The notes under the pieces: generated by a model
What the model saw: only the letters and a program-made list of their open reading frames with translations
Databases searched by the model: none
What the model was told of the DNA's origin: nothing
Shown: positions 11,633 through 36,962 of the stretch, piece after piece
How the letters are laid out: the number at the start of each line of letters is the position of its first letter
Numbering within the stretch: position 1 is the stretch's first letter
Program-made: the position numbers and the translations under genes
NCBI GenBank assembly: GCA_038058635.1
Contig: JBBUAP010000004.1
Coordinates: 31,196-95,195 of the forward strand
DNA length: 64,000 bases
Reading direction: 5' to 3'
Origin: Patescibacteria group bacterium
Lineage (GTDB): Bacteria; Patescibacteriota; UBA1384; 2-12-FULL-50-11

Positions 11633-11648
11633 TGGGCCGAATAGTGAA

Positions 11649-14178: not shown

Positions 14179-14200
14179 AGTTACGATTTACGATTTAAGA

Positions 14201-16441: not shown

Positions 16442-16461
16442 CCGCAACATGCTATTAATGA

Positions 16462-17531: not shown

Positions 17532-17571
17532 AGTGTTGCGCTAACGATCAAAAGAAATTACAGTATTTAAA

Positions 17572-17850: not shown

Positions 17851-17875
17851 GGCGAGACAATTGCGCTGGAACACT

Positions 17876-17925
17876 CTGACTCACCGTATATAGTATAGTG
17901 TATACGGTAAGTCAGGGTGAGTTAC
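17876..17925 (+). promoter_or_regulatory. Alternative (mutually exclusive) hairpins in the cysS 5' region
   Basis: ctgactcaccgtata/tatacggtaagtcag forms a 15-17 bp stem; the overlapping actcacc/ggtgagt offers an alternative pairing. Confidence 0.35.
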
Positions 17926-17997
17926 TAATGTGGTCGTCTACATAACCGATCAACTGCAGACTTTCATATACAGACTGAATAGGGTAAAAAGAGAGTA

Positions 17998-19332: not shown

Positions 19333-19356
19333 TATATATTTATTACCTGAAAACTA

Positions 19357-19385
19357 TTGACTTCCTTATATAATTAAGGTATATT
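19357..19385 (+). promoter_or_regulatory. Sigma70-like promoter (TTGACT-17-TATATT)
   Basis: The -35 is TTGACT, the spacer is 17 nt (tccttatataattaagg) and the -10 is TATATT, upstream of a GC-rich structured leader. Confidence 0.5.
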
Positions 19386-19426
19386 CTCACCGTACGTTAA
19401 GCGACCGAAATTCGTCGGCGCCGTCT

Positions 19427-19515
19427 CGGCTGGGATTTGGGAGAGCCGTCACATGAGTTGCCCTCGGGCTTCTCGACGGTTTCCCTCCTTCCCTTTTCCT
19501 GGCTGAGACGGCGCT
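19427..19515 (+). ncRNA. Structured GC-rich 5' leader element (unknown class) closed by a 10 bp stem
   Basis: gcgccgtctc ... gagacggcgc encloses about 65 nt that include a polypyrimidine tract tttccctccttcccttttcc (anti-SD-like). Confidence 0.35.
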
Positions 19516-19589
19516 GATGAACGCATTCGCTTGACGCGTTTGTTTACATCAACGACTACGATATGAGCCCCGCAAGGGGCGAGGTGGAT

Positions 19590-20513: not shown

Positions 20514-20517
20514 GGAC

Positions 20518-21483
20518 ATGAAACTCCTGAAAGTTTTACTCGCGGCTTTGGCCGCGAGTCTCGTCATTCCGGTCTTTGCTCAGAACGAAGGCGAGTACCT
20601 GGATCTATCCAAGGACCAGTTCGTAGCTGGGGGTATGACCTCAAGCGGGATCGCCAATGAGCTCTTGCCGGCTTTTGCTGGCTATGCTCCGAAGGAGAAG
20701 GCCGACGAGGTGATCTCGTTTGCCTTCAACTACGATATCCCGAAGCTTCAACTAGCTTTTCGGGATTCGAAAGGGAAGGTGCACACTCGCACCGGCAAGC
20801 TCGCCAAAGGCGAGAAGCTCATTTCGACGGTCAACTCCAAAACTCGCCAAGGTGGCATTTGGTTGGTTGACGCGACTGTGCGTTGGGCGCAGCATTGCGG
20901 TAACCCGCTGCCGTCACCCTTCCGGGTGACGCTCTGGATCCCGGACTGGTCGCAAGACCGGATCGTCGTCCAGAGAGTGGAAATACTGAAACCATATGCT
21001 GTCACGGTCCGTGAAAATGTCATCGTTCAGCAACTGATTCCAACCCTCGGCAATGTGGAGCTCAACCTGCCGCCGGTGGAGCGCGGCCGGTACAAGCTGA
21101 CGGTCGTTGGAAACGAGGGCGCAGGACATCGCTGGGAGTATGTGAAGTCCTTCTGGGACAACTTCCTAGACTTCCTGCGCGTTGCCGCTTTCCCGATCGG
21201 ACAACTCGTTCGTCGGGCGGACAACCTATCCATCAACACCTCCTCGCAAGGAGGAGCGGGTGGCAATGGTTATGGTGCAGCGGCAGCGGCTGCTTCATCC
21301 TCGTCTTCGTCGTCCTCGACGTCGGCGACGCCAACCTCCGCAGCCGGTACTTCTGGCTCTGGCGGATCGTCTGCTGGCGGCGCTGCTGGCGGAGGCGGCA
21401 ACGACACGACAGGAACCGGTTCGGGCGGAATGCCTGAATTGGTTCTCTTCTTTGAGCGGACTTGGTTGCAAGTCGCAGCCTAG
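20518..21483 (+). CDS. Secreted hypothetical protein with Gly/Ser/Ala-rich C-terminal region
   Basis: Signal peptide MKLLKVLLAALAASLVIPVFAQ; low-complexity tail [31 protein letters not shown]... Confidence 0.5.
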   Translation: MKLLKVLLAALAASLVIPVFAQNEGEYLDLSKDQFVAGGMTSSGIANELLPAFAGYAPKEKADEVISFAFNYDIPKLQLAFRDSKGKVHTRTGKLAKGEKLISTVNSKTRQGGIWLVDATVRWAQHCGNPLPSPFRVTLWIPDWSQDRIVVQRVEILKPYAVTVRENVIVQQLIPTLGNVELNLPPVERGRYKLTVVGNEGAGHRWEYVKSFWDNFLDFLRVAAFPIGQLVRRADNLSINTSSQGGAGGNGYGAAAAAASSSSSSSSTSATPTSAAGTSGSGGSSAGGAAGGGGNDTTGTGSGGMPELVLFFERTWLQVAA

Positions 21484-21494
21484 TTCGCTATCCT

Positions 21495-21526
21495 GGCCAA
21501 ATCACACAGCGCTGTGTGATTTGGCC
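21495..21526. promoter_or_regulatory. Perfect 32 bp palindrome between the surface-protein genes
   Basis: GGCCAAATCACACAGCGCTGTGTGATTTGGCC has perfect dyad symmetry; it could be an operator or an intercistronic hairpin. Confidence 0.5.
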
Positions 21527-21594
21527 TCATCCCATGCCTAACTAATGGTCGATTGGTTGGGAATGTAGATGAATATAAGTAAAGGAGAATAATA

Positions 21595-22203
21595 ATGAAT
21601 AAAGTAATTATTTCAATTCTTGGAGTTATTGTCGCAACTGGCTTTGCCGGAACGGTGTTTGCCGCTTCGACAAGCTCAAGTTCTACAAGCTCAACCAGCT
21701 CTTCTGTCGTCGTTTCTAACGGTAACGGTGGTGCTGCCGCTTCGAGTGGTGCATCAGGCGCTGCTTCAGCTTCATCCGGTAACGGTGCCTCTAGTGCATC
21801 TGCTGCTAGCTCTTCGAGTTCAGCTGCGGTTGCCAATGGTGCCGCGGCTAGCTCCGGTTCTGCCGGCTCTAGCTCAAGTGGATCAAGCTCGGGTTCCAGC
21901 GCTTCTAGCGCCGCCAGCTCTTCAGCTTCTGCGGGTGGCAAAACAATTGTCGCCTCAGACAAGAAGGACTGTCCTAGCGCTTCAGCCAGTGCTGCCGCCG
22001 CTGCTTCTAGCTCTTCAGCTAGTTCAGCTGCTGCCGCCAAAGCTGCTTGCTCCACTACTGCCAAGGTTGTTACAACCAAGTCAGTAAAAAGCCTGCCTGC
22101 AACCGGTGCCGAAACGGCCCTGTTGCCAGGTGCTATGGCTATGTTTGCCCTTGCGGCTCGACGCTTCGCGTTGGCCAAAAAGGAAGCAAGTCTCTTGGCC
22201 TAA
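21595..22203 (+). CDS. LPXTG-anchored Ser/Ala-rich cell-surface protein (sortase substrate)
   Basis: Signal peptide MNKVIISILGVIVATGFAGTVFA; the C-terminus carries LPATG, a hydrophobic stretch (AETALLPGAMAMFALAA) and a basic tail (RRFALAKK). Confidence 0.6.
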   Translation: MNKVIISILGVIVATGFAGTVFAASTSSSSTSSTSSSVVVSNGNGGAAASSGASGAASASSGNGASSASAASSSSSAAVANGAAASSGSAGSSSSGSSSGSSASSAASSSASAGGKTIVASDKKDCPSASASAAAAASSSSASSAAAAKAACSTTAKVVTTKSVKSLPATGAETALLPGAMAMFALAARRFALAKKEASLLA

Positions 22204-22248
22204 CCGCTAAGAGTTGTCGAAAGGCTTCGGCCTCAAGACAAAGAAAAT

Positions 22249-22274
22249 GACCTCGCAAGAGGTCTTTTTCTTTT
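22249..22274 (+). terminator. Rho-independent terminator after the surface-protein operon
   Basis: gacctcgcaagaggtc followed by tttttctttt. Confidence 0.75.
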
Positions 22275-22314
22275 GACTCAAGATTTTTTGTTGGTTAACG
22301 GATACAATAGATAC

Positions 22315-23304
22315 ATGAGCAATCAGGAACGGAAAGCGGAGTTGGCCGAAACTTTACGGATTGACGAAAAGTCAGCGCGGATTAAACACATCGAGGCCGA
22401 AATGGCGACGCCGTCTTTTTGGCAGGAACACCAGCGAGCGGCCAAGCTAACCCAAGAGTTGAAGCATCTGCAGGACTTTGTGGCGGAATTTGAGCTAGCC
22501 GAGACAGATGCAGAGTTAGAAAAGCTGGAAACTGAGGCTTTTTTCTCCGGCGATCACGACGATTCTTCTTGTTTTGTCGGCATTCATTCCGGCTCGGGTG
22601 GCGTCGATGCCCAAGATTGGGCGGAGATGTTGGCTCGGATGTACACTCGCTACGGCGAAAGAGCCGACTACAAAGTCACCCTACTCGATCAAGCCGACGG
22701 TGAGGAGGCGGGAATCAAAAGCGCGACCCTACTAATCGAAGGGTTCAGAGCATATGGCAAGCTCAAAGCCGAGAACGGTGTTCATCGATTAGTCCGGATT
22801 AGTCCGTTTGATGCTGCCAAAGCCAGGCACACTTCGTTTGCCCTGGTCGAGGTCGTCCCCGAAGTGGCGGACGCCAGAGAGATTGAAATCAAGCCCGAGG
22901 AGATTCGAATAGATGTTTACCGTGCTGGTGGACACGGCGGTCAGGGCGTTAACACCACCGACTCGGCGGTCCGAATCACCCACTTACCCACCAAAATTGT
23001 TGTTACCTGTCAAAACGAGCGTAGCCAATTGCAAAATAAGGCTCAAGCGCTTAAGATTCTTCAGGGGAAGCTTCAGTTACTAGACGATGAGAAGAGACGC
23101 ATCGCCAACCAAAATCATAAGGGCGAGCCGGTTCTGGCCAGCTGGGGCAATCAGATTCGTTCATATATTCTTCAGCCATACCAGATGGTTAAGGATCTGC
23201 GGAGTGGCTACGAGACCTCCGGCGTTGACGATATTCTTGACGGACACTTAGAGAACATAATTGAAGCAAATATAAAATACTTCGCTAATTTAAAGAAAGG
23301 ATAA
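22315..23304 (+). CDS. prfB: Peptide chain release factor 2 (no programmed frameshift evident)
   Basis: SPF tripeptide (RISPFDAAK), GGQ motif (GGHGGQGVNTTDSAVRITHLPT); the ORF is continuous from the ATG at 22315 (TTG at 22273). Confidence 0.9.
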   Translation: MSNQERKAELAETLRIDEKSARIKHIEAEMATPSFWQEHQRAAKLTQELKHLQDFVAEFELAETDAELEKLETEAFFSGDHDDSSCFVGIHSGSGGVDAQDWAEMLARMYTRYGERADYKVTLLDQADGEEAGIKSATLLIEGFRAYGKLKAENGVHRLVRISPFDAAKARHTSFALVEVVPEVADAREIEIKPEEIRIDVYRAGGHGGQGVNTTDSAVRITHLPTKIVVTCQNERSQLQNKAQALKILQGKLQLLDDEKRRIANQNHKGEPVLASWGNQIRSYILQPYQMVKDLRSGYETSGVDDILDGHLENIIEANIKYFANLKKG

Positions 23305-23306
23305 AC

Positions 23307-23618
23307 ATGGAACTACCAAAATTTGGACAAATGAAGGATATGTATTCTCTGGCCAAGAAAGCCAAGCAGATGCAAAAGGAACTCAAAGACCTTGAGGTTG
23401 AGGGTAAGTCGGCTAACGGCGAAGTAACGGTTGTGGTCAGTGGAGAAATGAAAATCGTCTCAATTGATATTAGTGAGCATATGCTAGAGCCCAGCAAGAA
23501 AAGAGAGCTGGAAGATATCATCAAAGAAACAGTTGCGAAAGCTCTGGCAACTGCGCAAAGCGAGTCGGCGGCTCGAATGCAACCGCTACTTAAGGATATG
23601 AACTTCCCGGGAATGTAA
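23307..23618 (+). CDS. ybaB: Nucleoid-associated protein YbaB/EbfC
   Basis: 103 aa; MQKELKDLEVEGKSANGEVTVVVSGEMKIVSIDIS matches the YbaB family. Confidence 0.85.
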   Translation: MELPKFGQMKDMYSLAKKAKQMQKELKDLEVEGKSANGEVTVVVSGEMKIVSIDISEHMLEPSKKRELEDIIKETVAKALATAQSESAARMQPLLKDMNFPGM

Positions 23619-23644
23619 GGGTAGCTCAAAAGTTAAAAGTCAAA

Positions 23645-23977
23645 ATGTCAGACTCGAATGTAAAAATCGTAATTACTGTCCCAACAACACACGCCGAAGT
23701 TGTTAGGAAAGCAATGGGTGATGCCGGTGCAGGAAAGATCGGCAAGTACGAGCACTGCACTTTTTCGTCTAAGGGTATAGGTAGATTTTTTCCAACGGCA
23801 GCAGCTAGTCCTAAAATTGGTTCCGTCGGAAAAATAGAGGCAGTTGAAGAAGAAAGAATTGAGACGGTCTGCCCCCGAGACAGTCTAGACTCTGTTATTA
23901 AGGCAATTAAAAGTGCCCATCCTTACGAGGAACTGGCCTTAGATGTCTACCCGCTTTTAGAGATGGAGAAGTCATGA
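23645..23977 (+). CDS. Small PII-like protein, Nif3/YqfO C-terminal-domain-like (tentative)
   Basis: C-terminal ...AHPYEELALDVYPLL resembles the Nif3-family C-terminal motif; 110 aa. Confidence 0.35.
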   Translation: MSDSNVKIVITVPTTHAEVVRKAMGDAGAGKIGKYEHCTFSSKGIGRFFPTAAASPKIGSVGKIEAVEEERIETVCPRDSLDSVIKAIKSAHPYEELALDVYPLLEMEKS

Positions 23978-24537
23978 TCCTCGTTGTTGGTTTAGGGAAT
24001 CCTGGGCAGAAATACGATAAGAACAGGCACAATCTGGGATTTTTAACGATCGGCGCGTTGGCCAAGAGATCGGAGCTTCAATTAAACGAAGACAAGTATA
24101 TACCAGCCGAGGCGGCCAAAAGTGACGACTTTCAGTTGATTGCCCCCCTAACATATGTCAACGAATCTGGTACTGCCGTGGCGAAGGTTCAGAAAAAGCA
24201 CAATATTGACCTCAGCGACATCTGGGTTGTCCACGATGACACCGAGATTCCGTTTGGAGAAGTTCGGGTCAAGCGGGGAGGCACTAGCGGTGGCCACAAC
24301 GGTATCAAATCTATTGACCAAGCGATCGGTCCGGATTATTGGCGGATCCGGGTTGGTGTTGGGCGTCCAGAAAATACGAACATCGACTTGGCCGACTATG
24401 TTTTGAGCGATTTTACGCCAGAAGAAGCGGGAGTGCTGCCGTTAATTATTGACCGAGTTGCCGATTTCCTGGTACAATCTCTCAAAGACAAGCAATTACA
24501 AGTAACAACATTCAATGGCACGACCAAAAACAATTAA
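23974..24537 (+). CDS. pth: Peptidyl-tRNA hydrolase
   Basis: MILVVGLGNPGQKYDKNRHNLGF...VVHDD...GGHNGIKS is the canonical Pth sequence. Confidence 0.9.
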   Translation: MILVVGLGNPGQKYDKNRHNLGFLTIGALAKRSELQLNEDKYIPAEAAKSDDFQLIAPLTYVNESGTAVAKVQKKHNIDLSDIWVVHDDTEIPFGEVRVKRGGTSGGHNGIKSIDQAIGPDYWRIRVGVGRPENTNIDLADYVLSDFTPEEAGVLPLIIDRVADFLVQSLKDKQLQVTTFNGTTKNN

Positions 24538-25465
24538 TCAACCAGTCGAGGAAGAGAAGCTAGCGGAGGCCGAGGCAGAAATTATGCCTCATCATTCAGC
24601 CGAGGCCAGTTTTGATGAGTCAGCTGGCAATGTCGACGAAGAAGCAGAAAAGGAGACAGCGGTTGAAGAAGGGGCTGATCTAGATCAAGCCATACCGGCC
24701 GAAGTAGCGGCCATTCATGTCGGCAACGAATCGGCCAGTGCGTTAAACAAGGCCGAGCCATCAAAACTGGAACGGAAAAAAGAGGCCAAGGCCGAGCGTC
24801 AGGCCGCTAAAAGCGAGAAGATCGCCGCTACCAAAGAAGTTGAGAGCAAGAGCCGCCGCTCCAAGAAATACCTCGCCGCCCGCGCCAAAGTCGAACCAGG
24901 GAAACTTTACCAACTCGCCGAAGCTCTGACTTTAGTTAAAGAACTATCAATGTCCAAATTCGACGGTTCTGTTGAAATTCACCTTCGTTTAAATAAGAAA
25001 AAAGCTAAGGGTTCAACCGAATCGAGCCGCGGCGTTGTCCACTTGCCTCACGGTACTGGCAAGGAAAAGAAAGTCGTCGTCTTGGACGAAAAGATGATCG
25101 ACGAGATCGCCAAGACCAAAAAAATGGATTTTGATATCTGTATCGCTTCACCGGAGTTGATGCCGAAAGTGGCGAAAATCGCCAAGATCTTGGGTCCAAA
25201 AGGTAAAATGCCCGACCCTAAATCCGGCACCGTTACTAACGATCCGAAAAAAGTGATGGAGGAAATTAAGAGCGGCAAGACTGAATATCGTGTTGACGCC
25301 AGCAACATCGTTCACCAAATCATCGGCAAGGTTTCCTGGGAAGATGCTAAACTGGCCGATAACGCTAAAGTCGTCATGGCAATCTATCCGAAATCCCGCC
25401 TCAACAGTGCTTTTATCACTGCTTCAATCGCCCCATCAATCCCGCTCGATCTAAGCAAGTTCTAA
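24515..25465 (+). CDS. rplA: 50S ribosomal protein L1 with ~110 aa N-terminal acidic/lysine-rich extension
   Basis: The canonical L1 core starts near KKYLAARAKVEPGKLYQLAEALTLVKELSMSKFDGSVEIHLRL; the start overlaps the pth 3' end. Confidence 0.9.
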   Translation: MARPKTINQPVEEEKLAEAEAEIMPHHSAEASFDESAGNVDEEAEKETAVEEGADLDQAIPAEVAAIHVGNESASALNKAEPSKLERKKEAKAERQAAKSEKIAATKEVESKSRRSKKYLAARAKVEPGKLYQLAEALTLVKELSMSKFDGSVEIHLRLNKKKAKGSTESSRGVVHLPHGTGKEKKVVVLDEKMIDEIAKTKKMDFDICIASPELMPKVAKIAKILGPKGKMPDPKSGTVTNDPKKVMEEIKSGKTEYRVDASNIVHQIIGKVSWEDAKLADNAKVVMAIYPKSRLNSAFITASIAPSIPLDLSKF

Positions 25466-25468
25466 CTA

Positions 25469-26002
25469 ATGGTACAAAGATTGGTCGCGCCAATCGGCTT
25501 TCTCATCGGCCTAGTAGCGCTAGCTTTTGTCATGCAAACGCTGGGAAACTCATCGCCAACCAATAAACCCCTAGTGGGTCCGGAGCTATTAAAACAATTT
25601 GAGATTGTCGAGATAGCCCCTCCGGCAGCAACTGTCACCGACGAAGACAGTAAAAAAGTTGATTTATCAACGCTTTTTTTCAAACCAACTCTAGTGACTT
25701 TCTGGAGCGTTAACTGCGGCGAATGCGATACCGGTTTGCCAGTGCTAGATAATTTTGCCAAAAGTCAGAGTCAAGTCGCGGTGATATTGATTGATACCAA
25801 AGACGAACCAAAAGACGCCGAGGAAAAACTTACCTCACTTAATGTGACGACTGGTACTTATTACGATACCGACGGCTCGACCTTCCAGAGCTGGGAGGCA
25901 ACGATGCCTGCGTCCTACTTTGTCATTAACGGCAAAATTAAATACTATTTTCCCGGCCGAGTTAGCCAGGAACACCTCGACGCCTTGTTGACGGTTCAAT
26001 AA
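25469..26002 (+). CDS. TlpA/ResA-like thiol-disulfide oxidoreductase (secreted thioredoxin-fold)
   Basis: N-terminal TM/signal segment; the redox motif is WSVNCGECD. Confidence 0.7.
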   Translation: MVQRLVAPIGFLIGLVALAFVMQTLGNSSPTNKPLVGPELLKQFEIVEIAPPAATVTDEDSKKVDLSTLFFKPTLVTFWSVNCGECDTGLPVLDNFAKSQSQVAVILIDTKDEPKDAEEKLTSLNVTTGTYYDTDGSTFQSWEATMPASYFVINGKIKYYFPGRVSQEHLDALLTVQ

Positions 26003-26060
26003 AAAAAGCCGCCAAGCCCGCGGATGCGGAACGAGGCGGCAGCAAGTTTGGGTTTTTCCT
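26003..26060. terminator. Bidirectional terminator hairpin between convergent genes
   Basis: A7-gccgcc...cccgcggatgcggaa...ggcggc-...gggttttt serves the plus gene ending at 26002 and the minus gene ending at 26068. Confidence 0.5.
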
Positions 26061-26067
26061 TGGTGAG

Positions 26068-26412
26068 TCAGTTTGCACAGATTTCTATGTTATCCCTCCA
26101 GTTTGCAATCCGGTAACTACCAGCCCTTTCGAAGGTTACACCGAGCAAATCTGAAAGAAGATCAGACAGCTCGTACTGCCACTTATTAGCAGAATCGCGA
26201 GTCATCTGAAAGTGAATGGCGAAGCTTCCAAATGTTCCGTTCACTTCGATATGCACCTCGTGGATGTTATTCCCGAGTTCGGAGGGCTTGTTGAACCGAT
26301 TGAATTGTTCGCGTAGTTCGTAAAGTGCAGAGAGCCAGCCCTTCGGCTGTATGTCGACAAGGACCGGATTTTCGTACAGTGCGATCGTCGCGTCTAATGC
26401 CGTAACTCGCAA
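26068..26412 (-). CDS. Hypothetical protein (114 aa), no recognisable family
   Basis: Clean ORF on the opposite strand to the flanking ribosomal genes, with its own upstream region. Confidence 0.4.
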   Translation of the reverse strand: MRVTALDATIALYENPVLVDIQPKGWLSALYELREQFNRFNKPSELGNNIHEVHIEVNGTFGSFAIHFQMTRDSANKWQYELSDLLSDLLGVTFERAGSYRIANWRDNIEICAN

Positions 26413-26516
26413 AATTTGCCTCCTGTGCGAAATTCGCTTGGAGCAATACTACCATCTTCGAGAGAGAAGGTCAACCCCCTTCTACCCCGAGCTGTCGAGT
26501 GGGCTGAGGGTAAATA

Positions 26517-26555
26517 AAAAAGCCGCGCCAGAGGCAGATGCCCGGGCGCGGGAAG
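26517..26555 (-). terminator. Rho-independent terminator for the 26566..26982 minus-strand gene
   Basis: Plus strand reads aaaaaagccgcgcc-agaggcagatgcccgg-gcgcgg: a hairpin plus a U-tract when read on the minus strand. Confidence 0.5.
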
Positions 26556-26565
26556 GCAGGAAGGT

Positions 26566-26982
26566 TCAGAATCTGATTGTAACCCCTCCCTTTATTGTCA
26601 GAATTACACCAAACGTCGGATCGTCCATGACAAAAAAACTTGGATACGTACCGAAGTCGTTGGTACGCCCACGGTAGAACGGGATTTCGAGAGATTGGGT
26701 GCCTACCTCGCACAGCTTCTGAACGCAAGTTAAGTGAGCTTTAGCTGCGAGAGCGCTCACAACCTTTTCGACGTCCTCACTATCACGACAGATGATTGTC
26801 AGCATGTCATCTTCCGGTAATCCGAAGTCGATGGCCATAATCTCCCGTTGAAGATCTTGGTCGAAACTCACAGTGTTGTGAAGATAGTGAACGAGCAGTA
26901 TAAGATCGGCTTGCATCTTTAAATACTTCCGTGAAATCTCTCCGACTTTCGCTGCCCGATTGAGGAGCATCTTTACCATCAT
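26566..26982 (-). CDS. Hypothetical protein (138 aa), no recognisable family
   Basis: Clean ORF; paired with 26068..26412 as a two-gene minus-strand insertion between rplA and rplJ. Confidence 0.4.
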   Translation of the reverse strand: MMVKMLLNRAAKVGEISRKYLKMQADLILLVHYLHNTVSFDQDLQREIMAIDFGLPEDDMLTIICRDSEDVEKVVSALAAKAHLTCVQKLCEVGTQSLEIPFYRGRTNDFGTYPSFFVMDDPTFGVILTIKGGVTIRF

Positions 26983-27077
26983 TTGCCTCCGCGCTAGCCG
27001 TAGCTAGTTATGGAGAGATTATAGCTTTCCAAGCATCTGTAATCAATCCCTGTTTACCCTGAGCAAAGTCGAATGGG

Positions 27078-27106
27078 TTGACGTATTTTTTAAATAGTGG
27101 CATAAT
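27078..27106 (+). promoter_or_regulatory. Sigma70-like promoter for rplJ-rplL (TTGACG-17-CATAAT)
   Basis: ttgacg tattttttaaatagtgg cataat, about 175 nt upstream of rplJ. Confidence 0.55.
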
Positions 27107-27281
27107 CATTAAGTCCAAAGACAGTAGGTGACCTCTGCCAGCAGGCGGAACAAGTCGTAAGTCCTACCGAGGCAAGAACCAAAAATGCCGGTCTTTGACG
27201 CGGCTATTTCATTTTCAAATGAAATTTGTCACTTGAAACATAAATCAGCCTTTAGTTTTGGAACTTTAGACTTAAACAATA
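27107..27281 (+). ncRNA. rplJ 5' UTR, candidate ribosomal protein L10 leader (autoregulatory) element
   Basis: A ~175 nt untranslated leader directly upstream of rplJ, where the L10(L12)4-binding leader is found in many bacteria; the structure was not verified here. Confidence 0.3.
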
Positions 27282-28091
27282 ATGCCTATCTTAAGAGCCC
27301 AAAAAGAAGACCTAGTCGCCAAACTAACAGAGGAGTTGCAAAACTCTCGTATTGCTTTGGTCTTTGCTTACACCGCCCTAAATATGAAGGCCAACGACAC
27401 CCTGCGCACTCGCGCTTTTGAGGGCGGCGCCAAAGTAAAAATGATCTCCAACACTTTGCTCGCCATCATTTTGAAAAACATTGGCAAAGAATTGGAGATT
27501 CCGCAAAAGACCTTGGCTTTGGCCTACGGTTTTGAGGACGAAGTAATCGCCGCCAAAACCTTAGTGGAATTTGCCAAAGAAACTGAAACGCTGGAAGTAT
27601 TGGGTGGCTGGGTTGATGGCAATTTCTTTGACGCCTCGCAAATCAAAACTCTGGCAACTTTGCCAAACAAAGAAACCCTGCAAGCACAATTGGTTGGTCG
27701 CCTAAACGGTTTGATTGGTGGTTTGGCATATTCTTTGAACTTCCCAATTCAGAAGCTGGCCTTTGTGATTGAGGCAGTCAAGTCGGCTAGCGGTGAGCCA
27801 GTTGCGGCTGAAGCGCCAGAAACATCAGAGAAACCAGCTGACGAGCCAGTTACAGAAGCTGCTGAAGAATCCTTCGACCCCGCTGGAAACAGTGAGATTG
27901 TCGAATCTGCTCAGGATAAACCAACTGCAGAAACGGAACTAGTCGACACTCCTACCGAGCCTGCCGAAGAGAAGGCAGAGGAGTCAGACTCGTCCGACGA
28001 CCAGTCCGTCGAAGCTTCAGCGGAGGAAGAGGTAGTGGCGAAGTCGGAAGAAGTCCAAGAAGAAAGCAAAGAAGAAATAAAAGAAAGTTAA
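27282..28091 (+). CDS. rplJ: 50S ribosomal protein L10 with long acidic C-terminal extension
   Basis: MPILRAQKEDLVAKLTEELQNSRIALVFAYTALNMKANDTLRTRA is the L10 core; about 100 aa of Glu/Ser-rich tail. Confidence 0.9.
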   Translation: MPILRAQKEDLVAKLTEELQNSRIALVFAYTALNMKANDTLRTRAFEGGAKVKMISNTLLAIILKNIGKELEIPQKTLALAYGFEDEVIAAKTLVEFAKETETLEVLGGWVDGNFFDASQIKTLATLPNKETLQAQLVGRLNGLIGGLAYSLNFPIQKLAFVIEAVKSASGEPVAAEAPETSEKPADEPVTEAAEESFDPAGNSEIVESAQDKPTAETELVDTPTEPAEEKAEESDSSDDQSVEASAEEEVVAKSEEVQEESKEEIKES

Positions 28092-28103
28092 GAAAGGAAA
28101 TAA

Positions 28104-28484
28104 ATGGCAGAAAAAGTTGAAAAATTATTAGAACAGATTTCCGAGCTATCCGTAATGGAACTCTCGGAATTGGTTAAGGGTGTGGAAGAGAAGTTTGGTG
28201 TGAGCGCGATGCCAGTTATGGCTGCAGGTGCTGCTCCAGCCGCCGGCGGAGCCGCCGAAGCCGCCGAAGAGAAGTCGGAATACAATGTTGTCCTGACCGC
28301 CTCTGGCGAGCAAAAGATCGCCGTCATTAAGGCCGTCCGTGAAATCAAACAAGACTTAGGTCTTAAAGAAGCTAAGGATCTCGTTGACGCCGCTCCAAAA
28401 GAACTCGGTATCATGAAGAAGGCCGACGCTGAAGAAGCCAAGAAAAAGCTTGAAGAAGCCGGCGCAACGGTTGAACTAAAATAA
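28104..28484 (+). CDS. rplL: 50S ribosomal protein L7/L12
   Basis: N-terminal dimerisation helix, Ala/Gly-rich hinge, CTD ...[32 protein letters not shown]... Confidence 0.95.
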
Positions 28485-28508
28485 ATTAGTCTCTAGTTTA
28501 GAAACGCA

Positions 28509-28534
28509 GAAACCGCCTTTCCGGGCGGTTTTTG
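28509..28534 (+). terminator. Rho-independent terminator after rplL
   Basis: aaaccgcc-tttcc-gggcggttttt. Confidence 0.6.
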
Positions 28535-28547
28535 CTACACTAAACTA

Positions 28548-29330
28548 ATGGACGAAACGCAAACAAAACTTAAAAAACTGCGCACATTCAACCGGGTGAT
28601 GTTTTTCTTACATGCGGCGCAAGGCGTGGCAATTCTACTCTTGAGCACCAACTTCACAGTACCCGTCAATGCTAGCTATCTGACATTTGATGTCGCAACA
28701 CAATCGCTCCTGCCGGCCTCGAGCGAACTATTTCGAATGTCGCTCGCCTGGCTTGTGGCGGCGTTTTTCTTTATCTCGGCTTTTGCCCACCTTTCGATCG
28801 CCACCTACTACAACAAAAACTACAATGCCAATCTCCTGCGCGGCCTGAACAAAGCTCGTTGGTGGGAGTACTCGATCTCAGCGTCGATAATGCTGATCGC
28901 CATCGCCATGCTGGTGGGAATATATGATTTCGGTACCTTAGTGCTGATATTTGGCCTCGGCGCGGCGATGAATATGATGGGCCTGATGATGGAAACGCAC
29001 AATTTGGGTGTGCTCGAGCGCGGCGACAAGCCGAATTGGCTAGCATTCAAACTCGGCTCGTTTGCTGGAGTAATTCCGTGGCTAATAATTGCCTTGGGTT
29101 TTTACTGGAGCAGCCGATTTAGCGGCGCTCAACCACCAACATTCGTTTACTGGATTTACGTTTCAATCTTCGTTTTCTTCAACTGCTTTGCGATTAATAT
29201 GTTCCTGCAGTACAAGCAAATCGGCCGTTGGCGCGACTACCTCTACGGCGAGCGAGCGTTTATTATCTTAAGCTTGGTCGCCAAGTCTTTATTGGCCTGG
29301 CAGGTTTTTGCCGGAACACTCCGGCCGTAA
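28548..29330 (+). CDS. Heliorhodopsin (inverted-topology microbial rhodopsin)
   Basis: 260 aa 7-TM protein; it aligns with heliorhodopsin 48C12 across FNR...HxxQ, RWWEYxxSASxM (counterion Glu) and IGRWRDY...LSLVAKSLLAWQV (Schiff-base Lys in TM7). Confidence 0.85.
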   Translation: MDETQTKLKKLRTFNRVMFFLHAAQGVAILLLSTNFTVPVNASYLTFDVATQSLLPASSELFRMSLAWLVAAFFFISAFAHLSIATYYNKNYNANLLRGLNKARWWEYSISASIMLIAIAMLVGIYDFGTLVLIFGLGAAMNMMGLMMETHNLGVLERGDKPNWLAFKLGSFAGVIPWLIIALGFYWSSRFSGAQPPTFVYWIYVSIFVFFNCFAINMFLQYKQIGRWRDYLYGERAFIILSLVAKSLLAWQVFAGTLRP

Positions 29331-29399
29331 GGCTGGAAGGACTATTCACTAGGTGGGGTAAATAGAGCTGTGCTGTCGAAGTTTTGATATTCTATTCAA

Positions 29400-29921
29400 A
29401 TGACTGAGACGATTGTGTTTGGTGGCGGATGCTTCTGGTGCACCGAGGCGATTTTTAAAATGCTCAAGGGGGTGGAATCGGTCGAGCCGGGTTATGCTGG
29501 CGGGACGACAGATAATCCGAGCTATCAGACTATTGGCGATCACGCCGAAGTGGTCAAGGTCGAATTCGATCCAGCGAAAATTGAATTTTCTGATTTGCTC
29601 ACAGTCTTTTTTGCGACGCACGACCCCACAACGCCTAACCAGCAGGGCGCGGATATTGGCTCGCAGTACCGATCACTCATATTATTCACAACGCTCGAGC
29701 AGGAAACCGACGCCCGGAAATTTATTGACGAGCTGAACGACTCGTCGGAATTTGGCGAGCCGATTGTCACCGAAATTAAGCCGCTAGAAAAGTTCTATCC
29801 GGCCGAAGCCGAACATCCCGGCTATTATCAACGCAACCAAAACACCGGCTACTGCCAGGTGGTCATTAATCCTAAGCTGCAAAAAGTCAAATCCAAATTC
29901 TCGCAACTGCTGGCCGAGTAA
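29400..29921 (+). CDS. msrA: Peptide methionine sulfoxide reductase MsrA
   Basis: Active-site GCFWC (FGGGCFWCTEAIF) plus the MsrA core. Confidence 0.9.
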   Translation: MTETIVFGGGCFWCTEAIFKMLKGVESVEPGYAGGTTDNPSYQTIGDHAEVVKVEFDPAKIEFSDLLTVFFATHDPTTPNQQGADIGSQYRSLILFTTLEQETDARKFIDELNDSSEFGEPIVTEIKPLEKFYPAEAEHPGYYQRNQNTGYCQVVINPKLQKVKSKFSQLLAE

Positions 29922-29976
29922 TAAGCGTATTTCTGCGGAAGTCACCGGAACGAGTAAATTTTGTTACGATAAATAA

Positions 29977-30801
29977 ATGAAAAAGATTTGGTGGATTGTA
30001 ATAGCGTTCGTCGTTTTAGTGGTGCTCTTTTTGATCGGCGGAGAGGTGTATAAACGACAAACCAATCCTCAAACAGCAACCAGCAGTACCGAAAATGGTG
30101 AAGCGCCGACAATCACGGCGAATTTTGTTGATCTGGATAAGATTGCCGCAATTACTAAATTTCGCAGTTGTCAGGGGCACATCGTCGTCCCGCAAGACGG
30201 TTCAGAAACCAGAAGTAATATGAAGCACTATCTTTATCTTAAAAAAGAATCCACCTCGGCTCGGCGACTAGTGAAATTGTACGCGCCGTTCGATGGATTT
30301 GTCAGCGACATCTATAAAGGCGACGAAGATTTTAGTGATCGTGATCCGGCTTCGCGGGACCTGACCGTAAGCAAGTCCAAGGGCCTCGGCGCTCGCAGTG
30401 ATTGGGGTTTTTCCTTTTTGCACATTGAGCCGCTCGATGGCCTGAAAGAAGGTAACGCAGTTAAGGCGGGAGAACTGCTTGGCTATGTCTCTCTCGAGCT
30501 AATCCCACCGTATTATGCCTTTGACGTTGTCTATGCCAAGATGGGGTCATTCCCCAAGAAAATCGACAAGTGGAACAGCCCGTACGCCGCTCTGGAATCG
30601 GCCTTTGCTCATATGGACAGCGATACCCTAGCCAAGTTTTCTGTTTTTGACGTCGATTCAGCTGACGACTTTGCCATTACTAAAGCAACCCGTGACGCCG
30701 CACCGTGCCAGTACGGCCCCGATGGCCGACAGTTCAACCAAGAGCGAGATGAGAATTGGTACAATGATTGGGTGGGCGACATAAACGATGCGGTAAACTA
30801 G
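29977..30801 (+). CDS. Membrane-anchored hypothetical protein, divergent LytM/M23-like domain (paralog A)
   Basis: N-terminal signal anchor MKKIWWIVIAFVVLVVLFLIGG; degenerate M23-like motifs (GHIVVPQDG, APFDGFV, LHIEPL...VKAGELLGYV). Confidence 0.45.
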   Translation: MKKIWWIVIAFVVLVVLFLIGGEVYKRQTNPQTATSSTENGEAPTITANFVDLDKIAAITKFRSCQGHIVVPQDGSETRSNMKHYLYLKKESTSARRLVKLYAPFDGFVSDIYKGDEDFSDRDPASRDLTVSKSKGLGARSDWGFSFLHIEPLDGLKEGNAVKAGELLGYVSLELIPPYYAFDVVYAKMGSFPKKIDKWNSPYAALESAFAHMDSDTLAKFSVFDVDSADDFAITKATRDAAPCQYGPDGRQFNQERDENWYNDWVGDINDAVN

Positions 30802-30807
30802 GAGACC

Positions 30808-32019
30808 ATGAAAAAGATTTGGTGGATTGTAATTGGGGTTGTGGTGGTTATAGTAATCATTAGTGGAGTGGTCTGGAGCAAATCACGAAGCCAACAAAAT
30901 GGTTCAAGGGTTAACGTTCCTTCGGCTGATAGTGGCCAGAGCCAAAAAGACAGTATTGCGGTTGCGGCCGGTAAAATGCTAACTAACAACAACTGCAAGG
31001 GCGAGGGGCCGGGCGTGCTAACTCGCTTGCCGATGGACGAGCCGGATTACGCTATGATTCTGCCTTACGGATTAATGGTTGGCGGTCATGTTACCCCCAT
31101 TGATCATCAATACTTTTCGCCGACGATCTTCAATTCGCCGCGCGACACCTATCCGGTTTACGCTATGGCCGATTCGAAGATAGTCGACATCCAACCCCGT
31201 ACAAACGAACGAGGAACGGAATATCGCTTTGTTTTCACGATGACCTGTACTTTTCAGTACTACTACGACTTGGTAACGAGTTTGACGCCGGAACTGAAAA
31301 CCGCCGTCGACAGTCGCCAGTTCAATATTGATGTTAAGGCAGGGGATTTGGTCGGACGAATTGGCGGCCAAACTTTGGATTTTGCAGTCTGGGACACCAC
31401 CAAGCCATTGAAAAATTTCGTTAACCCGAAGAGTTACGAAAGCGAAATCTGGAAAATCTACACCGCCGATCCGCTCGATTACTATACGCCCGAGATTAAA
31501 GTAAAAGCATTAGCGAAATACATTCGTACCACCGCTCCATTATCTGGCCGGATTGACTACGACATTGACGGCAAATTGATCGGCAGCTGGTTTTTGAAAG
31601 ACTCGGGCGGTTATGCCGGGCCAGGCGGAGGCAGCGAAGGTTACTGGGCGGGGCATTTAGCGATTGCGCCGGAGTATATCGACAATTCAGCAACAGTAAT
31701 TTCATTTGGGAGTTGGAACGGTGGCGAAGCCAAACAATTCACTGCCAAGAACCCGATTGACCCTGCTACTGTCGGTGTGGCGTCGGCGCTAACAAAATAC
31801 GAACTTTACGTGTCGCGCTACTACAAGCCCGACGGACAGATGTGGGACAATATGAAATTAGCCCACGACCTAAAATTGAAGATAAGTGAAAGTGAGCTTG
31901 GTGGCTGTGTCTTATTCCAGCTCACCAGCGCTCGCGAGTTGAGAGTGGAACAATTCGCCAAGAAAAAATGTACCGCAGTGGCTGGGTTTAGCGGTCAGGA
32001 AAAAACCTACGAACGCTAG
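30808..32019 (+). CDS. Membrane-anchored hypothetical protein, divergent LytM/M23-like domain (paralog B)
   Basis: Same N-terminus MKKIWWIVI (the first 26 nt are identical to paralog A); GGHVTPIDHQ, YAMADSKIVDI, VKAGDLVGRIGG. Confidence 0.45.
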   Translation: MKKIWWIVIGVVVVIVIISGVVWSKSRSQQNGSRVNVPSADSGQSQKDSIAVAAGKMLTNNNCKGEGPGVLTRLPMDEPDYAMILPYGLMVGGHVTPIDHQYFSPTIFNSPRDTYPVYAMADSKIVDIQPRTNERGTEYRFVFTMTCTFQYYYDLVTSLTPELKTAVDSRQFNIDVKAGDLVGRIGGQTLDFAVWDTTKPLKNFVNPKSYESEIWKIYTADPLDYYTPEIKVKALAKYIRTTAPLSGRIDYDIDGKLIGSWFLKDSGGYAGPGGGSEGYWAGHLAIAPEYIDNSATVISFGSWNGGEAKQFTAKNPIDPATVGVASALTKYELYVSRYYKPDGQMWDNMKLAHDLKLKISESELGGCVLFQLTSARELRVEQFAKKKCTAVAGFSGQEKTYER

Positions 32020-34212: not shown

Positions 34213-34524
34213 ATGGTGGAGAGGGGAAAGCGGCCAGAGTTCCAAACAGGGGCGCCCGAAATAAAAGTGGCACCGGAATTTCCGGGGGACGATAGCTCTT
34301 CTAGTTTCGAACACAATCCGGCTGGTTTACCGTCTGCCACTCCTGAAATTACACCGGCTCCATCAGTATCCTCTCCAGAATCGAGATTACCATCTGACGG
34401 AGAGCCTGTGATTCATAGCCACGACCAGACGGTGGGTTTTGAGGAAATTCCTAAAGGTGAAAATACGCTGCGTGACCAAGATACGGTCGACGCAGTGTTT
34501 GAAAGGGAAGCAAGAAGTCAATGA
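34213..34524 (+). CDS. Small Pro/Ser-rich disordered protein (hypothetical), translationally coupled to the next gene
   Basis: 103 aa low-complexity protein; ATGA overlap with the downstream ATPase gene; no obvious SD, so the call is tentative. Confidence 0.35.
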   Translation: MVERGKRPEFQTGAPEIKVAPEFPGDDSSSSFEHNPAGLPSATPEITPAPSVSSPESRLPSDGEPVIHSHDQTVGFEEIPKGENTLRDQDTVDAVFEREARSQ

Positions 34525-36962
34525 GTGACTTTCTGCCGACCTATCTTATCTACACCATCTTAGCCGCGATTGTCATCCTGCCGTTGGCGCTAATGTGGTT
34601 TTTCCGTTATTGGCAGAAAAAGGATGCGCTAGGCGATGTTAACTCTTTAGTTTGTCTATTGGTGTCGCTGCCGAAAGAAGCGACCATCGATCCGCACGCC
34701 GCCAACGAACCCGTCAAAGACTTCAAGGGTTTGATTGCGCCGACAGAACAATTTTACTCGGCGCTAACAACAATAATTCACCAGCGTCATTTTATCGACT
34801 GGCTTTTTAGCACCCCCGCTCACATTAGCTTTGAAATCTATTCAGTCGGTGGCGTGATTTCGTTTGGAATTATCTGTCCAAAGCGGATTCGAACGATCGT
34901 TGAACGACAGGTTCACAGTTTTTTCCACAATGCTCAAATAGTCATTGGTGTCCCACCGAAGGTCTTCACTAGCGAACAAGAACATGTCTCGGGCGTTGTA
35001 TTCGAACAAGGTAAGAACTTTGTCCTCCCCCTCAAGACCTATCAGTATCTTGAGGCTGATCCGCTTAATACTCTAACGACAGCGCTGACCAAATTGCAGG
35101 GCTCGGGCGCCGCTACAATTCAAATGCTGATTCGGCCGATTAGCGACAATTGGCGGATGCACACTGGTATTGCCAGCGGCCATGTTGTCGCAAATAAAAT
35201 GCACCTCGTTAACCGGACTGGTACTGCTCGAGTTCTTGGTACCATTGGTGAAGCAATAAAAACCTCCCCACCGACAGAAATCTCAAAGCAAACCCAGCGC
35301 TCGCCAGCGCAAGAGGAGTTGCTAAAAGCCCTTCAAGAAAAAGGCAATAAAACTGGCTTCGAAACTATCATTCGAGTGCTGGCAACTGGCGACACTCCGA
35401 CGGCAGCCGAAGAAAACACCAAGGCATTGATTAGCTCCTTTTCCCAGTTTTACTCACCGCAATTAAATAGTCTGAAATACCGCCAGATCGAACAAAAACG
35501 AATTTCACGCGATTATCTGCTCCGACTGTTTTCCGGCGCGCCAAAGATGATTTTGAATGTCGAGGAGTTGGCTAGTATTTATCACTTCCCAAATCGTTTC
35601 AGCGAAGTCCCGGGGATGAAATGGGTCTTGGCCAAAACTTTGCCATCACCACCAAACTTGCCCAAAGAGGGAGTGGTCATTGGCGAAAGTAATTATCGAG
35701 GCGAAAAAAATCTAGTTCGACTTCAGGACGAAGACCGCCGTCGTCATATCTTTATGATTGGCAAAACTGGTACTGGTAAGACGACGCTCTTTGAGATGAT
35801 GATCGAGCAGGATATGCATAACGGCAAAGGGCTTTGCTTTATCGATCCACTTGGCGACGCCATCGAGTCGCTATTAAAGAAAGTGCCGACGCACCGGGCT
35901 AATGATGTGATTGTGTTTGACCCGTCCGATATCAAATTTCCACTTGGCTTAAATCTACTTGAATACACCAAACCCGAAGAAAAAGACTTCTTAATTCAGG
36001 AAGTAATCGAGATATTCTACAAACTGTTCGACCCGAACCGGACTGGTATCGTTGGACCCCAGTGGGAGCATTGGGCGCGCAATGCCGCCCTGACGGTGAT
36101 GAGTCGCCCCGAAGGAGGGAGCTTAATCGATTTGCCCCGTCTTTTTACCGACGACGCTTTCCGAGAGGAATCAGTTTCGTTTGTCAGAGACCCGGTTGTC
36201 AAAGCCTTCTGGGAGCAACAGCTAGCCAAAACGGCCGACTTTCACAAATCGGAGATGTATAACTATTTCATCTCTAAGTTTGGCCGATTTATGACCAACG
36301 ATTTGATGCGTAATATTATCGGACAAACCAAAAGCTCTTTTGACCTAAGGGAATTGATGGATTCCGGCAAGATTTTGTTCGTCAACCTCGCCAAAGGTAA
36401 AATTGGCGAGATTAACTCAAATCTATTGGGCTTAATTTTGGTTTCAAAAATCCAAGTCGCGGCTTTCAGTCGGGCAGATACGCCCGAAGAACAGCGGAAA
36501 GATTTCTATCTTTATGTCGATGAGTTTCAGAACTTTACAACCGATACTTTCGCGACGATATTGGCCGAAGCTCGCAAATATCGCCTCAATCTTAATGTCA
36601 CCAATCAGTATTTCGCCCAACTGACCGAACATATTCGTGACGCCGTTATTGGTAATGTGGGAACACTAATTTCCTATCGTATCGGTGCTGAGGACGGCGA
36701 GTATTTAGTCAAAGAAATGCCCGGACTAACGGCCGAAGACCTGACTAACCTTGATCGGTTCCAGGCATATGTTAAACTTCTAATCGATCTGACTCCAAGC
36801 AAGCCGTTCTCGCTTTCGGGTATCAAAAGTGCCAACCCTGGTTCAGTTGAGATGTCCGATTGGCTCAAAAAGTCCACCCGGGCTAAATATACCAAGCAAC
36901 CAGTTGTCTTTGCCCCGATTGCTAAACCAGCAGAATCACCAGTAACCACCCCAAAACCATGA
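34521..36962 (+). CDS. Single-TM membrane protein with C-terminal FtsK/HerA-superfamily P-loop ATPase domain, VirD4/TrwB (type IV coupling protein)-like (paralog 1, 813 aa)
   Basis: N-terminal TM helix; ~400 aa unassigned domain; Walker A FMIGKTGTGKTT; Walker B-like FYLYVDEFQNF; Arg finger-like ARKYRLNLNVTNQ; homologous along its length to the next gene. Confidence 0.6.
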   Translation: MSDFLPTYLIYTILAAIVILPLALMWFFRYWQKKDALGDVNSLVCLLVSLPKEATIDPHAANEPVKDFKGLIAPTEQFYSALTTIIHQRHFIDWLFSTPAHISFEIYSVGGVISFGIICPKRIRTIVERQVHSFFHNAQIVIGVPPKVFTSEQEHVSGVVFEQGKNFVLPLKTYQYLEADPLNTLTTALTKLQGSGAATIQMLIRPISDNWRMHTGIASGHVVANKMHLVNRTGTARVLGTIGEAIKTSPPTEISKQTQRSPAQEELLKALQEKGNKTGFETIIRVLATGDTPTAAEENTKALISSFSQFYSPQLNSLKYRQIEQKRISRDYLLRLFSGAPKMILNVEELASIYHFPNRFSEVPGMKWVLAKTLPSPPNLPKEGVVIGESNYRGEKNLVRLQDEDRRRHIFMIGKTGTGKTTLFEMMIEQDMHNGKGLCFIDPLGDAIESLLKKVPTHRANDVIVFDPSDIKFPLGLNLLEYTKPEEKDFLIQEVIEIFYKLFDPNRTGIVGPQWEHWARNAALTVMSRPEGGSLIDLPRLFTDDAFREESVSFVRDPVVKAFWEQQLAKTADFHKSEMYNYFISKFGRFMTNDLMRNIIGQTKSSFDLRELMDSGKILFVNLAKGKIGEINSNLLGLILVSKIQVAAFSRADTPEEQRKDFYLYVDEFQNFTTDTFATILAEARKYRLNLNVTNQYFAQLTEHIRDAVIGNVGTLISYRIGAEDGEYLVKEMPGLTAEDLTNLDRFQAYVKLLIDLTPSKPFSLSGIKSANPGSVEMSDWLKKSTRAKYTKQPVVFAPIAKPAESPVTTPKP

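Follow-up and report, generated by a model that had tools for sequence, protein, structure and literature searches.

An intact heliorhodopsin gene beside msrA in a Patescibacteria bacterium and its possible tie to photo-oxidative repair

Results

A full-length heliorhodopsin gene lies between rplL and msrA

We analysed a 64,000-nucleotide stretch of DNA (64 kb, hereafter the window) from contig JBBUAP010000004.1 of a Patescibacteria (candidate phyla radiation, CPR) bacterium, focusing on an open reading frame (ORF) at 28548-29330 of the plus strand that runs from ATG to TAA and encodes a heliorhodopsin (HeR) of 260 amino acids (aa). Upstream on the same strand lies rplL (28104-28484), which encodes ribosomal protein L7/L12 with its N- and C-terminal Ribosomal_L12 domains (PF16320 and PF00542), and whose stop codon is 63 nucleotides (nt) from the HeR ATG. 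Downstream, 69 nt after the end of the HeR gene, begins msrA (29400-29921, plus strand), encoding peptide-methionine (S)-S-oxide reductase (PF01625, 189.6 bits; TIGR00401, 162.7 bits). The position directly after rplL and beside msrA, already given in a preliminary description of the window, is borne out.

Profile searches, structure-database searches, alignments and modelling agreed on the identity of the product. The Pfam heliorhodopsin model PF18761 matched with 309.1 bits (cut-off 26.7; E = 2.4e-92) along positions 1-242 of 242, and the NCBIfam 'HeR' equivalog NF038020 with 317.1 bits (cut-off 100) along positions 1-244 of 244; apart from this equivalog, no family besides PF18761 matched the ORF in the Pfam/NCBIfam profile scans. 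When phmmer was run against the PDB, the product aligned end to end with the archaeal heliorhodopsin TaHeR (6is6; E = 2.3e-72) and with 48C12 (E = 4.5e-50).

The residues that define the family are also in place. An RWWEY motif in transmembrane helix 3 (TM3; codons 104-108, 28857-28871, plus strand) aligns with RWFEY of TaHeR and puts the counterion position at E107 (28866-28868), and an SLVAK motif in TM7 (29271-29285, plus strand) aligns with the SLVAK of TaHeR and includes S242 and the retinal Schiff-base lysine K246 (29283-29285). The TM7 stretch quoted in the preliminary description, LSLVAKSLLAWQV, is present and contains K246. The conserved histidine pair H22/H81, the counterion E107 and the SxxxK Schiff-base motif are thus all kept; H22, H81, W105, E107, Y108, E149, S242 and K246 were invariant in 49 homologs that are 58-96% identical to the window protein. 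The equivalents in 48C12 are H23/H80 for H22/H81, E107 for E107 and S237/K241 for S242/K246, and the counterion glutamate is E108 in TaHeR.

An AlphaFold2 model built on the 49 homologs (mean predicted local distance difference test 91.5; predicted template modelling score 0.86) showed seven helices and a predicted long beta-hairpin in extracellular loop 1, with strands at residues 37-48 and 53-65. In Foldseek comparisons the model superposed on TaHeR 6is6 with template modelling (TM) scores of 0.92/0.95 and a root-mean-square deviation of 1.7 Å, and on 48C12 with TM-scores of 0.86-0.89, as against TM-scores of ~0.6 and 11-17% identity for type-1 rhodopsins. Lysines and arginines were distributed very unevenly on the model, the N-terminus and intracellular loops 1-3 carrying 5+2+2+4 = 13 and extracellular loops 1-3 and the C-terminus 1+0+1+1 = 3. 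By the positive-inside rule, this distribution predicts a cytoplasmic N-terminus and an outside C-terminus, an inverted topology that is the defining trait of heliorhodopsins. A type-1 microbial rhodopsin was considered and rejected: Bac_rhodopsin gave no profile match at E <= 0.01, TM7 reads SxxxK and not DxxxK, the fold similarity is at the ~0.6 level given above, and the charge distribution is the opposite one.

When the gene was compared with that of a 96% identical relative (locus L161), dS was 0.26 and dN/dS (nonsynonymous to synonymous substitution ratio) was 0.07, indicating that the HeR gene is maintained by strong purifying selection. Taken together, the ORF at 28548-29330 is a genuine, intact and full-length heliorhodopsin of a CPR bacterium. 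The preliminary description had proposed as much, namely a 260-aa heliorhodopsin aligning over all helices, with its counterion Glu in RWWEY and its Schiff-base Lys in TM7. This proposal stands on every side: the Pfam match spans the full model, NF038020, the end-to-end PDB matches and the predicted fold agree with it, the pocket residues are invariant across the homologs, and the protein is neither a type-1 rhodopsin nor another seven-helix protein, nor does it lack the Schiff-base lysine.

Methionine sulfoxide reductase genes recur beside heliorhodopsin genes

The MsrA of the window has no signal peptide and carries the GCFWC active-site motif from residue 10. We compared its placement across 168 HeR loci (labelled L001 onward), which group into 46 lineages at 70% HeR identity and whose flanks total 1.8 Mb. 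An msrA gene lay within 0.9 kb of the HeR gene, always on the same strand, in 9 of the 168 loci and 5 of the 46 lineages, and the HeRs of these five lineages were at most 57% identical between groups. The arrangement differed in each of the five: in the window and L161, msrA follows HeR; in L039 it comes immediately before HeR, 18 nt away; in L054, L065 and L079 it lies upstream of HeR, beyond a sortase gene on the opposite strand; in L055, from a Thermoplasmatales archaeon, msrB stands between an upstream msrA and HeR; and in a 59%-GC lineage (L118, with L116) an upstream msrA overlaps HeR by 8 nt.

In an unbiased ranking of neighbouring families by the number of HeR lineages in which they occur within 2.5 kb, MsrA came joint first with a cupin (5 lineages each), and MsrB (PF01641, 166.6 bits), which is non-homologous to MsrA and has the sister function, came fourth (4 lineages). 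Either MsrA or MsrB was found within 2.5 kb of HeR in 7 of the 46 lineages. Every msrA copy in the 1.8 Mb of flanks was at most 0.86 kb from HeR (Fisher P = 7e-6; 8e-5 when the seed lineage was omitted), where per-lineage probabilities were combined under an assumption of uniform placement and the independence of lineages within Patescibacteria was judged from arrangement and HeR divergence only.

A literature search found no paper joining heliorhodopsin with MsrA or 'methionine sulfoxide reductase', and Msr is absent from the ten operon-partner groups of HeR listed in the 2024 Nat Commun paper on OcHeR-OmrDE (PMC11109279). The recurrence of Msr genes beside HeR in several unrelated lineages is a mildly new point. 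The earlier suggestion, offered as speculation, that msrA hints at a function linked to light or oxidative stress gains real but modest support from the recurrence of both msrA and msrB.

Some further features of these neighbourhoods were recorded. In the uncultured Thermoplasmatales archaeon (L055:768-2531), whose HeR (1755-2531) is 71% identical to TaHeR, msrA occupies 768-1232, and msrB (1264-1602, minus strand) is divergent and starts ~150 bp from the HeR start. A DUF523/DUF1722 gene (YbgA-like, 2-thiouracil desulfurase family) precedes the overlapping msrA-HeR pair in L118 (3783-6330) and L116; ybgA presumably lies beside the photolyase gene in E. coli. The cupin is a 129-aa Cupin_2 protein found near HeR in 5 lineages (L001, L003, L034, L035, L086 and L114; e.g. 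L001:12155-12544), and a 168-aa protein without a Pfam match occurs near HeR in 8 loci of 3 lineages. Neither of these two proteins is among the published HeR partner groups.

The gene neighbourhood changes among close relatives

In L161, the locus of the 96% identical HeR, the order rplL ... HeR ... msrA is kept, with small genes inserted on both sides. These are a weak Phd/YefM-ParE-like toxin-antitoxin pair between rplL and HeR (L161:232-742) and a 94-aa gene between HeR and msrA (L161:1843-2127). In L166, where HeR is 94% identical, neither rplL nor msrA adjoins HeR, which has a Ser-hydrolase-like gene upstream and a NUDIX-like gene downstream. L161 and L166 share HeR together with 26 upstream nt that contain AAGGAGG, and their flanks differ. 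These insertions and differing flanks indicate that the HeR locus is a hotspot of small insertions and rearrangement. A 49-nt repeat occurring twice downstream of HeR in L166, a candidate mark of a mobile element, was not found in the window or in the other loci.

At 73-79% identity the neighbours were different again. HeR follows rpsL-rpsG-fusA-tuf-rpsJ and precedes a type I restriction-modification system in L162; in L163, ~5 kb upstream of rplC, its neighbours are metK and a Ser-hydrolase gene; and it has other, unrelated neighbours in L081, L164 and L167. A conserved rplL-HeR-msrA operon was consequently rejected, since L161 alone retains the order, and there with insertions, while neither L166 nor the 73-79% group has it.

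A terminator and promoter-like elements surround the heliorhodopsin start

RNA folding of the rplL-HeR spacer revealed an intrinsic-terminator hairpin of rplL at 28506-28535 (plus strand), with a GC-rich stem, GCAGAAACCGCCT-TTCC-GGGCGGTTTTTGC, and a T-run. The spacer folds at -29.4 kcal/mol (z = -6.66), none of 200 shuffled sequences being as stable; a consensus promoter/terminator scan had missed this terminator, which ends 12 nt before the HeR ATG. The minimum-free-energy structure also contains an outer 8-bp inverted repeat around the terminator, TAGTTTAG...CTAAACTA (28494-28547, plus strand), the 3′ arm of which takes up the final 8 nt ahead of the HeR ATG. In an rplL read-through transcript, base pairing within this outer repeat would extend as far as the HeR start codon.

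The T-run of the terminator passes directly into TGcTACACT (28533-28541, plus strand), a putative extended -10 promoter of HeR that ends 6 nt before the ATG and overlaps the 3′ arm of the outer repeat by 2 nt. No Shine-Dalgarno (SD) sequence precedes HeR in the window, whereas L161, L162 and L163 have AAGGAGG. A second putative extended -10 promoter, TGaTATTCT (29385-29393, plus strand), likewise ends 6 nt before the msrA ATG, and the same TGnTAnnnT-N6-ATG layout precedes the gene after msrA (element 29962-29970) as well as HeR in L005 and L083. From this pattern we infer that the HeR mRNA is leaderless and starts from its own extended -10 promoter.

The layout was frequent in the window. In 10 of 46 genes, exactly 6 nt separated a TAnnnT hexamer from the start codon, compared with ~0.74 expected per position (binomial P ~3e-9), the gene starts being 3942, 14201 (topA), 28548, 29400, 29977, 32365, 41570 (secD, minus strand), 52381 (ftsZ, minus strand), 57793 and 62044. 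The hexamer was often preceded by TGn, and an SD-like motif was present in only ~17 of 47 window genes. This suggests widespread leaderless transcripts in the genome of this CPR bacterium; a literature search found no description of widespread leaderless transcripts for Patescibacteria. The spacer between HeR and msrA holds no stable hairpin (folding z = +0.9), so that read-through into msrA is possible. In L161, the 48 nt upstream of msrA are conserved despite the presence of another gene between HeR and msrA.

Host and retinal supply

The named relatives of the window TopA, at 66-68% identity, belong to Candidatus Berkelbacteria, Saccharimonadales and the 'Patescibacteria group'. The best 80 HeR-bearing species genomes were mostly Saccharibacteria/Saccharimonadales, together with Dojkabacteria, WWE3, Woykebacteria and Kerfeldbacteria, and a few were Thermoplasmata, Methanomassiliicoccales, Anaerolineae or Dormibacterota. 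The content of the window also fits a CPR genome: it includes type IV pilus genes, a class II ribonucleotide reductase, tandem VirD4-like ATPases and DUF6580. Heliorhodopsins have already been catalogued in this group. Chiriac et al. (2022, Microbiome) found HeRs in CPR when examining 1326 CPR genomes, 80 of these HeRs being in Saccharimonadia, reported SLVAK as the commonest TM7 motif of CPR HeRs, and proposed a role in mitigating light-induced oxidative stress (PMC9166423). Since CPR heliorhodopsins with the same SLVAK are already published, the window gene is ordinary for its phylum and its novelty is low.

According to Bulzu et al. (2021, mSphere), HeRs are restricted to monoderms, Patescibacteria being among the monoderm hosts, and HeR neighbourhoods are enriched in two-component and redox genes such as those for thioredoxin, peroxidase and catalase (PMC8612252). 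The preliminary description had read the gene as support for a monoderm cell plan; this agrees with the Patescibacteria host and with that study, and adds no independent evidence. Sortase genes adjoin HeR in related loci, and no outer-membrane gene family was found among the 48 ORFs scanned in the 64 kb, a stretch too short to show their absence from the genome.

Regarding the chromophore, no crt or blh family turned up when the 48 window ORFs of 150 aa or more were all scanned with Pfam. Jaffe et al. (2022) described rhodopsin-bearing Saccharibacteria without blh, for which retinal scavenging was proposed, and noted that TaHeR-type proteins take up retinal fast (PMC9296517). On the strength of the missing crt and blh genes in the window and of CPR relatives that lack blh, the host of the window most likely scavenges retinal from neighbouring cells. 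Two carotenoid-type genes were observed at L039:220-2357, in a metagenome-assembled genome of Candidatus Saccharimonadales (JTS-AC220), upstream of the msrA-HeR pair and with one gene between them and msrA. One encodes a CrtI/CrtD-like FAD amine-oxidase-family oxidoreductase (PF01593, 96.5 bits) and the other a 'Carotenoid biosynthesis protein' (PF04240, 87 bits). Their presence near a CPR heliorhodopsin bears on the origin of the chromophore.

The ribosomal cluster is fragmented

The secE-nusG-rplKAJL-rpoBC cluster is scattered across 9889-28484 of the window. Its genes secE (10292), nusG (10495) and rplK (11151), together spanning 10292-11576, are split from rplA (24515) by ~13 kb that hold unrelated genes, among them those for a membrane protein, dprA, topA, recR, cysS, a release factor and pth. 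After rplA come a TlpA-like redoxin gene, two minus-strand ORFs without a family match (26068-26412 and 26566-26982), rplJ and rplL. Neither rpoB nor rpoC was detected among the scanned ORFs of the 64 kb, and in L005, L083 and L161, the three related loci extending to rplL, the gene after rplL is likewise not rpoB. The view that HeR sits in place of rpoB must therefore be dropped: HeR is one of many interlopers in a fragmented cluster and has not replaced rpoB. A genomic island or recent transfer was also considered and found no compositional support, GC content being flat at 0.47-0.50 over 22-36 kb.

The redoxin gene between rplA and rplJ (25469-26002, plus strand) encodes a TlpA/ResA-like membrane-anchored thiol-disulfide oxidoreductase, which narrowly passes the Pfam cut-offs for Redoxin and AhpC-TSA and falls far short of the NCBIfam ones for ResA/DsbE/TlpA. 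Downstream of msrA, an ORF at 29977-30801 (plus strand) opens with the TGtTACGAT-N6-ATG start mentioned above and encodes a 274-aa membrane-anchored protein, a 33% identical relative of which is encoded 1.5 kb downstream of HeR in L081. The adjacent ORF at 30808-32019 also encodes a membrane-anchored protein; both products start with MKKIWWIVI and lack any Pfam/NCBIfam match. Paralogy of the two was rejected, as BLASTP similarity beyond the shared MKKIWWIVI was not significant (E = 0.57).

The same 48 ORFs contain no histidine kinase, response regulator, glutamine synthetase or photolyase by Pfam. Rfam (gathering threshold) and ARAGORN found no RNA family and no tRNA in the whole window, and hence no riboswitch or leader near HeR. 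Other features of the window include an unusually long L1 (24515-25465; 316 aa as called), of which the family model matches only the C-terminal part, and an unusually long L10 (27282-28091; 269 aa), whose L10 domain (residues 5-99) is followed by a ~100-residue acidic tail rich in Glu, Ala and Ser; the L10 of L005 has 174 aa. Finally, two tandem large VirD4/TraG/TrwB-like coupling-protein ATPases of 813 and 1027 aa, overlapping by 4 nt, are encoded at 34521-40042.

Discussion

We favour, with moderate confidence, the reading that the window encodes a functional CPR heliorhodopsin acting as a retinal-scavenging light sensor tied to photo-oxidative repair. The gene would be transcribed as a leaderless mRNA, with possible read-through into msrA. 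The apoprotein would bind all-trans-retinal at K246, with E107 as counterion, the retinal being scavenged from neighbouring cells, as proposed for Saccharibacteria. Like the characterised bacterial and archaeal heliorhodopsins, it would not pump ions and would instead serve as a light sensor with a slow photocycle, acting on partner proteins through its cytoplasmic face. Among possible pathways, the gene neighbourhood speaks best for the repair of photo-oxidised methionine by MsrA. HeR and MsrA may simply be expressed together because both are of use in the light, or HeR may bind MsrA directly in a light-dependent way, much as other HeRs bind glutamine synthetase, photolyase and an ABC transporter.

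A bolder version, in which HeR and Msr form a light-to-repair module and illuminated HeR binds or activates the adjacent cytoplasmic MsrA (MsrB in some lineages), follows the same analogy and seems to us unlikely. If it were true, methionine repair would be switched on by the damaging light itself, and Msr would be an eleventh class of HeR partner, occurring in CPR bacteria, in the 59%-GC lineage and in TaHeR-like Thermoplasmatales archaea.

A number of observations weigh against the light-sensor reading as a whole. What is proposed for its pigment, its photocycle and its lack of ion transport is carried over from relatives only 37-49% identical, and retinal genes may sit outside the 64 kb seen. 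The gene context is labile: the 94% identical HeR has neither rplL nor msrA beside it, the 96% identical one has them with insertions, and those at 73-79% have wholly different neighbours. In 39 of the 46 lineages, no msr gene was present within 2.5 kb of HeR, and the Cupin_2 family equals msrA in its number of lineages, which shows that some recurrence of small neighbours is to be expected in any case. A concatenated MsrA-HeR query against 5.8 billion proteins returned no fusion, only stand-alone HeRs of ~250-300 aa. In addition, msrA has its own conserved promoter region, and the leaderless promoter proposed for HeR is a pattern in the letters and nothing further.

Several of these points would be expected if the heliorhodopsin were real and its place beside msrA and rplL accidental, in a region prone to rearrangement, its partner being encoded elsewhere (a two-component system, glutamine synthetase, ABC transporter or hydrolase) or not existing at all. 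The differing context among 94-96% identical HeRs and the unrelated one at 73-79%, the many lineages without msr neighbours and the promoter region that msrA keeps for itself all fit such an accident. So do the other recurrent neighbours of HeR (the cupin, a PD-(D/E)XK nuclease, a response regulator/histidine kinase, an ABC transporter, a Ser-hydrolase and an SDR-like protein), several of which match published partner groups (PMC11109279). Chance adjacency accounts poorly, however, for msrA being found in five arrangements over bacteria and archaea and always on the same strand, for all msrA copies in the surveyed flanks hugging HeR, for the recurrence of the non-homologous MsrB, and for the 8-nt overlap of msrA and HeR in L118. 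We therefore hold an accidental adjacency to be possible, though on balance doubtful.

The two other explanations concern the protein itself. As a light-driven or light-gated ion transporter, like viral V2HeR3 or the type-1 pumps, the window HeR could energise the CPR membrane: one viral HeR conducts protons, according to works cited within PMC11109279 and PMC12873467, and CPR cells, some of which use type-1 rhodopsin pumps, are limited in their means of building a proton gradient (PMC9296517). The window protein belongs, however, to the prokaryotic TaHeR-like clade (48-49% identity, TM-scores 0.92-0.95) and not to the viral clades, and its profile matches are to HeR models only and not to Bac_rhodopsin. 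To our knowledge, no ion transport has been found for prokaryotic heliorhodopsins, its absence having reportedly been described by Pushkarev et al. in 2018 and Shihoya et al. in 2019. Transport is thus very improbable. A silent or decaying gene, whose product may always lack retinal in a cell that does not make it, would agree with the strong terminator ending 12 nt before the ATG, with the lack of an SD sequence where L161, L162 and L163 have AAGGAGG, and with the absence of retinal genes from the window. Yet the ORF is intact and keeps all signature residues, dN/dS is 0.07 against a relative at dS 0.26, and the SD-less -10-N6-ATG layout is common to the housekeeping genes topA, secD and ftsZ. 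A remnant of this kind is hardly credible.

The window gene and its neighbourhood matter for several reasons. Each of the few functions so far established for heliorhodopsins came to light through a gene encoded beside HeR. The tight, recurrent, same-strand association with MsrA, joined by MsrB, offers a concrete and cheap hypothesis that can be tested in the well-behaved TaHeR system, the L055 locus being likewise convenient for probing a HeR-Msr link, and such a link would give the 'light-induced oxidative stress' proposal a molecular footing. The window HeR also provides another case of a genome-reduced, probably episymbiotic bacterium that keeps a selected retinal photoreceptor, probably without retinal synthesis, which fits the idea of scavenging from the host. 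Furthermore, the leaderless-type layout at about a fifth of the window genes bears on gene calling and expression in CPR.

Comparison with known systems

The best solved relative is TaHeR, from Thermoplasmatales archaeon SG8-52-1 (PDB 6is6, 7u55 and 7clj; 48-49% identity), with which the window HeR shares the RWxEY counterion motif, SLVAK and the C-terminal AWQVFAGTLRP. The two differ in that the window protein has a bacterial (CPR) and not an archaeal host and carries insertions of 4 and 5 residues in intracellular loop 2 and extracellular loop 3. Among the fetched loci, the HeR closest to TaHeR (L055, 71%) also has msrA and msrB beside it. The founding member, 48C12 (PDB 6su3, 6su4 and 6uh3), has the same fold and shares the key positions, including E149, but it comes from an actinobacterial fosmid and is only 37-38% identical to the window HeR.

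Published CPR HeRs resemble the window HeR in their phylum-level host and in SLVAK; the papers describing them name thioredoxin, peroxidase, catalase, glutaredoxin and peroxiredoxin and no methionine sulfoxide reductase (PMC9166423, PMC8612252). The type-1 rhodopsins of Saccharibacteria (SacR proton pumps) are, like the window HeR, retinal proteins of CPR bacteria, and in a host that lacks blh they presumably use scavenged retinal; they differ in belonging to the Bac_rhodopsin family, in their opposite topology and in DTS-motif outward proton pumping (PMC9296517).

With respect to partners, HeR is known to bind and regulate glutamine synthetase (AbHeR, PMC9529153), photolyase (TfHeR, PMC9769723) and the OmrDE ABC transporter (OcHeR, PMC11109279). 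The window pair departs from these three in the promoter-like element that msrA has for itself and in an adjacency that shifts readily in evolution, and a coupling of HeR with MsrA would be a proposal from gene order. It resembles them in that the putative partner gene adjoins HeR on the same strand and serves a function needed in the light, and the cytoplasmic MsrA could reach the cytoplasmic loops of HeR.

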